From: Acidimicrobiia bacterium
Lineage (GTDB): Bacteria; Actinomycetota; Acidimicrobiia; IMCC26256; DASPTH01
Assembly (NCBI GenBank): GCA_040880805.1
Contig: JBBDHW010000060.1
Coordinates: 655 to 64,654 of the forward strand
DNA: 64,000 nucleotides
Reading direction: 5' to 3'
This document shows positions 8,270 to 11,777 of the stretch, piece by piece. The notes beneath the pieces are model-generated. The model had not been told where the DNA came from. It was given only the letters and a program-made list of their open reading frames with translations, and made no database searches. The translations under genes were made by a program, and so were the position numbers. Numbering within the stretch: position 1 is the first letter of the stretch; each line of letters opens with the position of its first letter.

Positions 8270-8440
8270 TGGCCCCGCCGAAACTCGCAAGAACTTTGGG
8301 ACTCCTCGGGTTTGTGTGGGTCCATCCGTGGTCAACTTCCCCGGATCACCACCAGTCGGCCTGTGGGAGCCGTATGACCGGAGACGGTCACGTACGGTTC
8401 TGCGAGAGCGGGAGGGGGAGGATCCCTCCCGCCACTCACC
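8270..8440 (+). mobile_element. 3'-terminal relic of a group II intron (end of domain IV, then domains V and VI). Domains I-III and the reverse transcriptase are absent.
   Basis: A canonical domain V lies at 8367-8400. After a 3-nt linker there is a domain VI-like helix (8404-8437: GAGAGCGGGAGGG / CCCTCCCGCCACTC) with an unpaired A at 8434 as a branch-point candidate and CAC shortly after. Only about 165 nt separate the upstream WD40 stop (8203) from domain V, too little for a complete intron. The 5' boundary is a guess. Confidence 0.6.
8367..8400 (+). ncRNA. Group II intron domain V (catalytic hairpin).
   Basis: The 34-nt sequence GAGCCGTAT-GACCG-GAGA-CGGTC-AC-GTACGGTTC carries the AGC triad and a lower helix matching the consensus. 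It has a 2-nt AC bulge, a 5-bp upper helix with compensatory pairs, and a GNRA (GAGA) tetraloop. As I recall it, the flanking strands are identical to yeast ai5gamma D5 (GAGCCGUAUGCGAUGAAAGUCGCACGUACGGUUC). Confidence 0.88.
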
Positions 8441-8656
8441 CGACAGGGGGCCGCTGGCGAAGCTGCACCCACGGCGCGACGGAAACCACGCACCCACCGC
8501 GGAAACGCGTGGGACTGAGCCCGTCCGACCTACCGGCACGCAGACCAACCAGCGGCCTACCTCACCCTCGGCGTGTCTCGATCCGGTGTTCGGGGACGGT
8601 CGGGCGAGGAATGGGAGGTAGGTCGATGGTGCTCTACGGGCCGTATACTGCCCTGT

Positions 8657-8908
8657 ATGACAACGCCCGTGCCGACCAGATTCACCGACGAGGAGCTCGC
8701 GCTGATCGACGAACTCGTTGACGTAGGCATCGGCGACAGCCGATCTGCGGTGATTCGACGAGGAGTGCACCACCTTGCCGATGCGGTCCGCCGAGCGGGC
8801 GTCGGCGCCGCCATCGTCCAGTCGTACACCAAGCAGCCCCAGACGCTCGACGACAACGAGCTCGCGATGGCGAGCGCAATCGCGTTGACCGAGGCGGAGC
8901 CGTGGTAG
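8657..8908 (+). CDS. Ribbon-helix-helix (CopG/MetJ-type) antitoxin.
   Basis: The sequence TRFTDEELALIDELVDVGIGDSRSAVIRRGVHHL is a typical RHH N-terminus. The gene overlaps the downstream MazF-family gene (stop 8906-8908, toxin start 8902). I chose the ATG at 8657; the ORF track starts it at 8573. Confidence 0.7.
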   Translation: MTTPVPTRFTDEELALIDELVDVGIGDSRSAVIRRGVHHLADAVRRAGVGAAIVQSYTKQPQTLDDNELAMASAIALTEAEPW

Positions 8909-9213
8909 CCCAGGCCGAGCTCTGGTTGATGGAGACCCCGAACCAGAAGCGCCGACCGGTACTCGTCGTGTCGCGCGACGAGGCCATCCCAGTTCTCAAC
9001 AACGTCGTGGTGGCGCCGGTCACGAGCACGATCCGAGACATCCCGACATGCATCCCCGTCGGCCCCGAGGAAGGCATCGACCACGACAGCGCGGCCACGT
9101 TCGACAGCCTCGCCGCCGTACCGAAGTCGGTCCTCACGACGCGCCTCGGCGAACTCGGCGTCGGTGGACGACGCCGCATCTGCGAGGCCTTGGACGCCGT
9201 CGCCAACTGCTGA
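8902..9213 (+). CDS. mazF: MazF/PemK-family type II toxin (endoribonuclease).
   Basis: The sequence ELWLMET..QKRRPVLVVSRDEAI..LNNVVVAPVTSTIRDIPT.IPV matches the MazF/PemK core (RPvlVvS ... V.PiTs). The size of 103 aa fits, and there is a 7-nt overlap with the upstream antitoxin. Confidence 0.75.
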   Translation: MVAQAELWLMETPNQKRRPVLVVSRDEAIPVLNNVVVAPVTSTIRDIPTCIPVGPEEGIDHDSAATFDSLAAVPKSVLTTRLGELGVGGRRRICEALDAVANC

Positions 9214-9403
9214 CGACGGTCACCCAGCCGGCGTTCGGAGACGGCTGGAGTCAGGAGCCGTACACCGGCAGCCGGGAAACGGCTACTTCGTTGGTCCGGT
9301 GATCGCAGGCAGGTTCGCATCGTGCTGGTTGCTGTCGCCTTGTGTAGTCAGCCGTCCGCTGCACTGCGCGAGCGCTGGTCTTTGGGACCGTCGACGTCGC
9401 TCG

Positions 9404-9437
9404 GCGCGGCTGGAGGGATCCAGTTCTCCAGCCGCGC
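9404..9437 (-). terminator. Strong hairpin immediately 3' of the glyoxalase-family gene, in the convergent gap with the toxin gene.
   Basis: A perfect 12-bp stem, GCGCGGCTGGAG (9404-9415) / CTCCAGCCGCGC (9426-9437), encloses a 10-nt loop. It lies 4 nt past the stop of the minus-strand gene. There is no U-tract, which is common in high-GC actinobacteria. Confidence 0.45.
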
Positions 9438-9441
9438 TTCG

Positions 9442-9933
9442 CTACTCGAGCTCACCGAAGCGGAGCCGGTTGCCGAATGGGTCGACGACGGCGAACTCGG
9501 TGCGACCGTCCGCGCTCTCGAGGCCTGGCTTGTTGCGGCCCACCGAGAACTTCTCGCTCAGCTCCGCGTGCAGGTCTCGCACGCCGGTCATGTAGATGTA
9601 GACGACCGAGCCGGGAGTGCTGTCGCCCTGGTGTTCGGTGAGATGCAGCACGAGGTCCCCTCTCGACACCTGGCGGTAGAGGGGGAGATCGGGCTCGAAG
9701 CGGTGCTCCCAATCGACCGTCATGCCGAGGTAGTCGACATAGAACTCGGTCGCTCTGTCTGTGTCGAAGGTCCGCAGGATCGGAACAACGCTGGTGAATT
9801 TCATGGACGGGTCCTCTCTCGATGCGGGCGCGGTGGCGGTTGCGAGGAGGCGTTGGCGTGCCGACGCGTACGACGTGCGCTGTTTGCGGGCGCGTGCACG
9901 TACGAGTTGCTTGAAGTCCTTGTCGGCGGTCAT
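9442..9933 (-). CDS. Glyoxalase/bleomycin-resistance (VOC) superfamily protein with a short basic N-terminal extension.
   Basis: The sequence MKFTSVVPILRTFDTDRATEFYVDYLGMTVDWEHRF...LVLHLTEHQGD...AVVDPFGNRLRF is a bleomycin-resistance-like VOC fold pattern. I chose the ATG at 9933; the ORF track extends it to 10038. Confidence 0.7.
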   Translation of the reverse strand: MTADKDFKQLVRARARKQRTSYASARQRLLATATAPASREDPSMKFTSVVPILRTFDTDRATEFYVDYLGMTVDWEHRFEPDLPLYRQVSRGDLVLHLTEHQGDSTPGSVVYIYMTGVRDLHAELSEKFSVGRNKPGLESADGRTEFAVVDPFGNRLRFGELE

Positions 9934-10303
9934 CCGGTGCCTCGCACCCGTCCGGTGTGGCAGTCCCCAGCAGTGCCGCCCGGACGGTGGAGCTACCGAA
10001 CGAACCTGACCGGAAAATTCGCTCCCCTTTGCCTCCATCGAGCGCCCTTGCTGGGTGACCCAATGGACCGAGCCGTGTGATCATGACCGCAGAGCGAGTC
10101 CTGCGCTCGACCTCCGACGACCTTCCCACAACCACGAGCCGACGGCGAGCAGCACAGATCGGCGTGTCGGCGTGTACCGGCGCGGCAGGCCCTAAGCACG
10201 TTGTCGCGTACGCGGCGTGAGCGCATTATGGGCGTGACATGCCCACGGCGAACAGCGTGTCTTGGAGCGTGACTTGCGGATATCGGGTGTCGGCGATGCT
10301 TTC

Positions 10304-11680
10304 TTACGTCGTGGGTTGGATGTTCTGGTTCAGGTGGAACAGGTTGGCCGGGTCGTACTTGGTCTTGATCGCAGCCAACCGCTCGTAGTTGCCTCGATAG
10401 TTGGCCTTGATGCGGCTCTGGTCGTCGCCGTCCATGAAGTTGATGTAGCCGCCTTCAGCCGAATACGGCTCGAGCGCTTCGTAGTAGCCGCGGACCCAGG
10501 CGATGTTCGTGTCGTTGTCGGCGGGGTTTTCCCACATGCCGGCGATGACGGGCGAGAAGTTGACGTCGCGGTACGCGAACGCTGTCTCGTCGGCACCCAC
10601 GCGTTGCACGGCCCCGTCGATTGGATAGAGGTGGACGGCACACTGGATTGCTGGGACCCGTGCACCATGGTCGGCGTGCACGGCGATCGCCTCGTCGCTG
10701 AGGTCGCGGGCGAAGCTCGCTTTCCAATAGTGCTGAAGTCCGGCGGGGAGCAGCGGGTCGAAGAGAGTGTTGAGCGCCGGATACGGCATCGCGCCGACGT
10801 GCGACCCGACAGGCGCGACGACATCGAGGAACGGCTTGATCATCTTCTCGCCCTGGTCGAGTGGACCCGCCCAACACGGCACCGCGAGACACACGTTCTT
10901 GAAATGCCACTCCTCGGGCAAGAACGGCAGCGGCGGCGCGAGATGGAACCCGACGAATCCCCCCAACTCCTCGGGGGACTCAGCAATGTACTCGCGGTAG
11001 AAGCGCAAGACCTCGTCGGCCCGATCGACGGGATACGCGATCGGTCCACCGTAGATGTCCGCCACGGGGTGCAGCCGGTACTCGAACGTGGTGACGACAC
11101 CGAAGTTGCCGCCGCCCCCGCGCAACGCCCAGAAGAGGTCGCTGTTGTCGTTCTCGCTGGCGGTGACCACGCGTCCGTCGGCGGTGACAACCTCAGCCGA
11201 CAGGAGGTTGTCGCACGACAGTCCGTACTTTCGCGAGAGGTAGCCGATGCCCCCACCGAGGGTGAGACCCGCGATCCCCGTCGAGCCGATGATGCCGCCC
11301 GTGGTCGCCAGACCATACGCATTCGTGGCTTCGTTGAACCCCGCCCAGGTACACCCGCCGCCAGCGCGCACGGTCTGGGTGTCCGTTGCGACGACGACGT
11401 CTTGGAGGAGGCTGAGATCAATCACGAGCCCCCCGTCGTTGGTACCGAAGCCCGGCGCGCTGTGCGCGCCACCCCGAACCGAGAGATCGAAACCCTCGGC
11501 GCGGGCCACACCGATCACCGCGGCCACGTCGGCTGTCCCGGTGCAGCGCACGATGGCGGCGGGACGCTTGTCAATCATGCCGTTATAGACCTTGCGGGCC
11601 TCCTCGTACCCGGCATCTCCCGGAGCGATCACCTCGCCGCTCGCCTCGCTACGTAACGCGTCGATTGCAGACATGCTCAT
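10304..11680 (-). CDS. FAD-linked oxidase (PCMH-type FAD-binding domain plus a BBE-like C-terminus).
   Basis: Motifs are RGGAHS..G....DGGLVIDLS, GGG.TW, GLTLGGGIGYLSRKYGL, LFWALRGGGGNFGVVT, and the C-terminal YINFMD...NYERLAAIKTKYDP.NLFHLNQNI. Confidence 0.85.
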   Translation of the reverse strand: MSMSAIDALRSEASGEVIAPGDAGYEEARKVYNGMIDKRPAAIVRCTGTADVAAVIGVARAEGFDLSVRGGAHSAPGFGTNDGGLVIDLSLLQDVVVATDTQTVRAGGGCTWAGFNEATNAYGLATTGGIIGSTGIAGLTLGGGIGYLSRKYGLSCDNLLSAEVVTADGRVVTASENDNSDLFWALRGGGGNFGVVTTFEYRLHPVADIYGGPIAYPVDRADEVLRFYREYIAESPEELGGFVGFHLAPPLPFLPEEWHFKNVCLAVPCWAGPLDQGEKMIKPFLDVVAPVGSHVGAMPYPALNTLFDPLLPAGLQHYWKASFARDLSDEAIAVHADHGARVPAIQCAVHLYPIDGAVQRVGADETAFAYRDVNFSPVIAGMWENPADNDTNIAWVRGYYEALEPYSAEGGYINFMDGDDQSRIKANYRGNYERLAAIKTKYDPANLFHLNQNIQPTT

Positions 11681-11777
11681 GCTCCCTCCCGGCAGCCCGG
11701 CACCTCTGGGTGCCGCTTCTCGACGTCATCATGGACCTTCATCGCAGGTGACACCCCTCATTCACGCGTCAGGTCTG

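Follow-up and report, generated by a model that had tools for sequence, protein, structure and literature searches.

Between a WD40 gene and a toxin-antitoxin pair, the 64,000-nt stretch of Acidimicrobiia DNA analyzed here (the window) carries a non-coding segment in which an initial annotation, made from the letters alone, had recognized an orphan group II intron domain V/VI. The locus raises the question of which element left this segment behind, and in what way. The answer involves two intron families, which we call X and Y.

The 3' end of intron X

We scanned the 64 kb against Rfam with cmscan and found a single match above the gathering score, to RF00029 (Intron_gpII; gathering score 40 bits), at 8365-8440 of the forward strand (59.3 bits, E-value 4e-9). 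It covers the model end to end (1-77 of 77), and a permissive re-scan of the 6 kb at 5000-11000 returned it again with an E-value of 3.8e-10. The covariance search thus bore out the assignment to domain V/VI. In the RF00029 alignment, the forward strand shows a 34-nt domain V at 8367-8400, with its AGC triad at 8368-8370, a GAGA loop of the GNRA type and a two-base AC bulge, all as initially described. The lower helix equals the Rfam consensus, and the upper helix deviates from it through compensated pairs, in line with the compensatory pairs that had been proposed. Domain VI follows after 3 nt (8404-8440), as claimed, and ends with both the model and the last X base at 8440. It is a 9-bp G+C stem with an unpaired, branch-point-type A8434 seven bases before the 3' end. 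Domain V is also a hairpin in the minimum free energy fold of 8336-8570, and these 235 nt fold better than shuffled sequences (z -3.0).

The X part can be followed further upstream by homology. Further genomes of the order and two metagenome contigs carry copies of X, and blastn of the window against the copies L079 and L081 gave a match at 8336-8440 (105 nt, 92-93% identity). The forward-strand segment 8336-8366 comprises the tail of domain IV and the J4/5 linker, and its 5' limit is the truncation point. Upstream of 8336, the window has no homology to the closest X copies at the DNA or the translated level, and tblastx against an X copy likewise found nothing there. The break falls just past the end point of the RT/maturase ORF of the intact copies, in which the ORF end lies about 35-45 nt 5' of domain V; this ORF end is absent from the window.

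The remaining parts of a group II intron are missing. Models of the D1-D4 ribozyme domains matched nowhere in the window, even at an E-value of 10, neither a 5' GUGYG nor a reverse transcriptase was found upstream of the X domain V in the window, and Pfam searches of the ORFs in 1-11700 found no RVT_1 or GIIM domain. The domain V/VI is therefore truly orphan. [quoted passage not shown] We also considered that the fold might be a chance RNA-like structure inside a protein-coding gene, as both strands have long mechanical ORFs overlapping the region. However, no Pfam family matches any of these ORFs, the RF00029 E-value of 4e-9 speaks against chance, and the differences between related copies include indels of lengths not divisible by three as well as compensatory pair changes. 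A coding origin, to which we assign practically no probability, was consequently rejected.

The 3' end of a second intron, Y

The relic had been taken as a lone intron tail within 8270-8440. This delimitation had to be revised: the 3' end of X abuts the end of a second intron, and the composite relic extends from 8336 to 8565, with 105 nt of X followed by 125 nt of Y. When we searched the genome itself with 8204-8572, we retrieved a locus on contig C69 that matches the window only at 8441-8577, with 97% identity overall and 98.9% in the interior of the Y domain VI. On C69, the block stands four bases (GAAA) after a different domain V, itself located behind a 447-aa RT+GIIM ORF, and this Y copy possesses domains V and VI as well as an intact RT ORF. 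In the window, the forward-strand Y part begins where the C69 homology starts, with the final base of domain V and the J5/6 linker (CGACA, 8441-8445). It continues with an oversized domain VI (8446-8565; 97% identical to the C69 copy and modeled with RNAalifold), the end of which is the intron end. It is followed on the same strand by an exon-like 3' flank (8566-8577), part of the homing site, in which 10 of 12 bases agree with the C69 3' flank and after which the similarity ends.

That the 125 nt after 8440 belong to the Y family is supported by their occurrence elsewhere. They trail a Y-family domain V in nine other loci, and RF00029 covers the Y domain V together with the whole block in L017, L019, L020 and L032. 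Y introns from seven further genomes of the order carry the block at 79-91% identity, directly behind a Y-type domain V wherever upstream sequence exists. Uninterrupted Y introns read ...ACGGTTC GA(A/T/C)A GGGGG at this transition, and in the window the Y tail is preceded by the X tail instead of the Y domain V. The 3' end of Y is fixed by two pairs of paralogs, each from a single genome (L019/L032 and L020/L033): their sequences agree completely through ...CCTACCTCAC and diverge directly behind it.

The block also has the structure of a domain VI. Its closing helix pairs 8445-8457 with 8549-8562 (13 bp) and encloses a branched insert; a bulged A8559 lies seven bases before the 3' end at 8565, which is a domain VI signature. 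For alignment A1, RNAalifold gave 31 pairs, 8 of them with compensatory changes. The usual size of domain VI is about 30-50 nt; that of the Y family, by contrast, measures about 120 nt. The 13-bp closing helix is invariant across families while the internal helices covary, and other Y subfamilies have the same closing helix with unrelated interiors. This large covarying domain VI is a small structural curiosity worth entering in intron databases. At a further locus, L019 (G229:C3, 1466-1831), the Y 3' end ...CCTACCTCAC adjoins the GTGCG 5' end of a Y-like intron without spacer; the second intron has an RF02003 match at 1695-1831, and the arrangement looks like head-to-tail tandem introns.

The X|Y junction in an intact twintron

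A complete twintron, in which X lies inside the domain V of Y, is present on the metagenome contig L080, the only fully intact case that we found. The outer intron starts at 541 and carries RF02003, a D1-D4 model, at 616-733 as well as an RT+GIIM ORF. The last base of its domain V before the insertion (...GCACGGTT) is 2494. The inner intron X starts with GTGTG at 2495, has RF01999 at 2563-2682 and an RT+GIIM ORF of 424 aa at 3117-4391, and ends with domain V/VI at 4379-4454. Its end, ...TTACC, abuts CGATAGGGGG, and the outer intron picks up again as CGATAGGGGGCCGCTGG. Read without the inner intron, the contig gives GCACGGTTCGATAGGGGG, which is the uninterrupted Y sequence as found in G180. Both twintron junctions are thus present in L080, and removal of the inner intron restores a continuous outer one. 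In the window, the 3' junction 8440|8441 is present and the 5' junction is lost. The two 3' junctions are the same, and the relic is therefore most probably the tail of a twintron. As a side observation, the twintron on L080 starts shortly after a tRNA-like 3' end.

This result bears on the reading of the relic as a solitary intron tail that retrohoming and later deletion left behind in ordinary host DNA, with no second intron involved. Such a reading would account for the RF00029 match and the absence of domains I-IV, and bacterial introns are most commonly found as truncated copies (PMC4424553). It conflicts with the assignment of the 125 nt past 8440 to the domain VI of a different intron family and with the identity of the junction with that in L080, and we regard it as very improbable.

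The X sequence contains features that may explain the insertion point. The hairpin loop GCGAACCGUGA (AACCGUG) is complementary to CACGGUU, the seven bases that end at the insertion point, and AAAUGCGAA (AUGCG) is complementary to CGCAU, one base further upstream. Both loops are present in X of L080 and in X of G264 (L088). Judged by complementarity, position and conservation, they are candidates for EBS1 and EBS2, respectively. This complementarity and the exact restoration of Y in L080 indicate that X is an intron that retrohomes into the 3' strand of the Y domain V, as far as sequence comparison can tell. The two families are distinguished by their Rfam segments, RF01999 in X and RF02003 in Y; the intron-encoded proteins of both consist of RT+GIIM, with no match to an endonuclease domain.

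Recurrence of the junction

We found the X|Y junction in six loci, namely the window, L074/L081 (G264), L059 (G265:C567), L084 (G265:C365) and the two metagenome loci L079 and L080. G264 (L074, L081, L088) and G265 (L059, L082-L085, L089, L090) are unpublished genomes. Compared with the window, the X part of the five other loci is 77-94% identical and the interior of the Y domain VI 52-56%, a level at which we take the interiors as unrelated. The recurrence of the junction with similar X parts and unrelated Y interiors argues that X repeatedly invades Y introns. In G265, an uninvaded Y (C8) exists beside an X-invaded Y of the same subfamily, and the genome of the window is parallel to this, with a Y uninvaded by X on C69 and an invaded one in the window. 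The copies L083, L022, L024, L036 and L021 lie outside Y, and the X lineage thus occupies other sites as well.

Pattern searches added little to these loci. A pattern for the twintron 5' junction had 9 matches with two mismatches in 264 genomes of the order, about equal to a reversed-pattern control, and all inspected matches lay in unrelated sequence. A loose pattern for public genomes (domain V end, 30-60 nt, Y domain VI start) gave 42 loci, 40 of which were chance matches, the only real ones being L059 and L074.

Two of the composites deserve a separate description. L088 (G264:C210, minus strand) consists of a full-length X followed by the J5/6 linker and domain VI of Y. It is preceded by the end of a gene, and its 5' flank, ...AACTGCAAGC, is unpaired with the candidate EBS1, which implies that not every composite is a simple twintron. 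It could have arisen by recombination between dispersed X copies or by movement of a composite. L059 (minus strand; 543-1217 of the reverse complement) is a 677-nt ORF-less chimeric intron located 17 nt downstream of a tRNA gene. It is composed, in this order, of a Y-type 5' end, an RF02003 segment, the end of the X ORF, X domains V/VI and the Y domain VI, and a Trp codon in the X ORF end is changed to a stop.

Other introns in the assembly

The assembly comprises 69 contigs and is 95% complete. It contains three RF00029 matches, in the window, on C69 and on C38. A search of the rest of the genome for a full-length copy had been suggested initially. A search with the full X sequence revealed no other X-like DNA in the assembly, and RF01999 had no match there, whereas it was matched in the M. 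acetivorans control; what the genome contains instead is the Y copy on C69 that X has not invaded. This copy (L086, G000:C69:2500-7500) is itself a twintron host: at about 531-2450, a third intron type lies between the Y 5' segment (RF02003 at 111-246) and the Y RT ORF (2532-3875). The third intron has RF02005 at 567-789 (190 bits) and an RT ORF of 496 aa at 898-2388; an RF00029-type domain V was not detected in it. The match on C38 belongs to the third intron of the genome (L087, G000:C38:19000-23069, minus strand), with an RT+GIIM ORF, RF02003, RF00029 at 41.7 bits and a normal-sized domain VI. It reaches the end of the contig, and its 5' exon is not assembled.

These data allow us to assess whether the relic might be a working spare part, serving the toxin-antitoxin genes as an alternative 3' splice module or as the 3' half of a trans-splicing intron. 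Its domains V and VI are undamaged and consensus-like, the 235 nt fold better than shuffles (z -3.0), and C.te.I1 of Clostridium tetani uses repeated domain V/VI units (reviewed in PMC4424553). Yet an intron 5' half is missing from the upstream part of this strand in the window, RF01999 and X-like DNA are absent from the genome, and the homology of the toxin-antitoxin region with other genomes starts only at 8630. We therefore consider such a function even less probable than the lone tail.

Origin of the stump

Overall, our results suggest, with a probability of roughly 0.85, that 8336-8565 is the non-functional 3' stump of a Y-family intron that had been invaded by an X-family intron. Under this scenario, a Y-family group II intron would first have inserted at the site in the window, and an X-family intron would then have retrohomed into the 3' strand of its domain V. 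Subsequently, the upstream parts would have been lost, that is, domains I-V of Y and domains I-IV of X together with its RT gene. What would be left over is an exact fusion of the 3'-terminal 105 nt of X with the 3'-terminal 125 nt of Y, together with the Y 3' flank. As the stump has neither domain I, with its exon-binding sites and catalytic scaffold, nor an RT/maturase, it cannot splice or move (PMC4424553).

We infer both the order of these events and the way in which the 5' parts were lost. For the latter, the simplest explanation is a plain deletion or a recombination between copies of the introns, which has, in our estimate, slightly better than an even chance; turnover of this kind is documented for introns of M. 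acetivorans (summarized in PMC4424553). Abortive, 5'-truncated reverse transcription of a composite RNA is the less probable route, although it keeps a substantial share.

A related scenario dispenses with a twintron at this site altogether. The stump would have been made in one step, by insertion of a composite RNA whose reverse transcription from the 3' end was aborted after about 230 nt, yielding a 5'-truncated copy as in LINE elements. The composite would consist of X with the J5/6 linker and domain VI of Y as a 3' extension, spliced at the Y 3' splice site, and a full twintron would never have been present in the window. Several observations are in favor of this scenario. The 3' flank in the window matches the C69 homing site in 10 of 12 bases, and G265:C365 carries a second, independently 5'-truncated X+Y composite, in which X starts about 240 nt before domain V. 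G264 has a full X with the Y domain VI behind a non-Y 5' flank. It is accepted that composite twintrons may be retromobile (PMC2882425), and splicing downstream of the predicted site is known from 3'-extended introns such as B.c.I4 (PMC1865049). However, there is no evidence that X uses the Y 3' splice site, and the donor element is absent from the assembly. The G264 5' flank is unpaired with the candidate EBS1, so that reverse splicing there is doubtful, and recombination between dispersed X copies is the simpler account of that composite. We thus hold an origin in one step to be unlikely compared with the decay of a resident twintron.

Flanking sequences and the question of an island

Between the WD40 stop and X lie 132 nt (8204-8335). 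Neither the fetched loci nor the genome nor the 264 genomes of the order revealed an origin for this segment; whatever matched did so at chance level and within coding DNA. A forward-strand motif at 8209-8224 shares 12 of 16 bases with the last 16 of the C69 5' exon and may be a remnant of the Y 5' exon or homing site; 29 of 5000 shuffles do as well. Since none of the fetched loci matches the 111 nt that separate this motif from X (8225-8335), we treat the motif as a lead only. The motif TTCGGGGACGGTC downstream of Y was considered as a repeat and rejected, as it has only two occurrences in the genome.

In the initial annotation, the relic was proposed to mark a mobile-DNA junction and to support an island origin of the locus. 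One part of this proposal stands: the GC content rises from 0.56-0.62 in 4500-8000 to 0.65-0.67 around 8000-9000, and the relic lies near the right edge of the low-GC block, which holds a second WD40 gene. Other marks of an island were not found, as the window contains no tRNA, no direct repeats were found bracketing the putative island, and 31 genomes of the family yielded no empty site. A DNA search of these genomes showed no region collinear with 1-8203 among the matches listed. The region of the toxin-antitoxin pair (8630-9238) recurs in just two further genera of the family, at 78-79% DNA identity, which is indicative of variable, accessory DNA. Taken together, an island origin of the locus is plausible but weakly supported.

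The toxin-antitoxin pair at 8657-9213 consists of an RHH antitoxin, with a weak RHH_1 match just under the cut-off (E-value 6.5e-4), that overlaps a PemK/MazF toxin (E-value 7.5e-12). The pair itself is probably mobile. No promoter or terminator consensus was found in 8000-9000. By eye, a TATACT is seen 9 nt before the likely ATG at 8657, a position that would suit a leaderless transcript.

Comparison with known systems and implications

Truncated intron tails, bacterial and archaeal twintrons and site-specific homing into introns are already known (PMC4424553, PMC2882425, PMC4649490), and the relic as such is ordinary mobile-element decay. Specific to the present case are the target, which is the 3' strand of the catalytic domain V of the outer intron, and the oversized domain VI of the outer family. 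Truncated group II intron fragments are the commonest state in bacterial genomes (PMC4424553); like the relic, they retain the 3' domains V/VI without ribozyme core or RT and have accessory genes nearby, but the fragment in the window derives from two introns instead of one.

A close parallel concerns TeI3/TeI4 of Thermosynechococcus elongatus, where the same pattern of similar inner and dissimilar outer copies was interpreted as independent insertions of an inner intron into outer introns that had already diverged (Mohr, Ghanem, Lambowitz 2010, PMC2882425). Both systems show site-specific insertion of an intron into a mobile intron in non-essential DNA, with nearly identical inner and diverged outer copies. 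However, the inner intron of T. elongatus is ORF-less and lies in domain IV, where it separates two start codons of the outer ORF, whereas X encodes an RT/maturase itself and occupies the 3' strand of domain V; in the window, moreover, the 3' stump alone is present. The nested group II introns of Methanosarcina acetivorans (Dai and Zimmerly 2003), as summarized in PMC4424553, resemble X and Y in repeated site-specific homing into introns, balanced by deletions and without coding flanking exons; according to the same summary, their host is an archaeon and their targets are intron ORFs, unlike the target of X. Extra structured RNA behind a canonical domain VI is also found in B.c.I4 of Bacillus cereus, whose 56-nt 3' extension is experimentally part of the excised intron (PMC1865049). 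The X+Y composite differs in having two tandem domain VI-type helices, the extra block being the domain VI of another intron.

An insertion into an element that is essential for the outer intron has consequences for splicing, which must then be sequential. Copertino and Hallick reportedly described in 1991 an inner intron in domain V of the outer intron of Euglena psbF. Euglena chloroplast twintrons are similar to X and Y in that the inner intron breaks an element essential for outer splicing, but they are organellar, degenerate and non-mobile and lie in housekeeping genes (PMC3534033). The X/Y pair also fits the idea that inner introns are kept in sites needed by the outer intron (PMC4649490), as well as the idea that other introns offer a perpetual homing site (PMC4424553).

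For the annotation of this genome, our results mean that the non-coding stretch from the WD40 gene to the toxin-antitoxin pair is the dead debris of two introns and holds no regulatory RNA or gene, and that the locus formerly hosted retroelements. Beyond that, they add an actinobacterial case of intron-targeting introns, in which the invader strikes the host ribozyme at its most conserved and essential part. A wider interpretation, which we put forward as tentative and on balance doubtful, is that X represents a specialized "intron of introns" lineage among Acidimicrobiales-like bacteria, which persists because it homes into the catalytic domain V of Y at the invariant 3' strand, and that the composites with two tandem domain VI units can be excised or mobilized as one unit. 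If this were true, the "intron of introns" cycle would naturally lead to introns that are chimeric or extended at the 3' end, such as the Y-5'/X-3' mini-intron L059, and the window would be one decayed product of the homing of X into Y.
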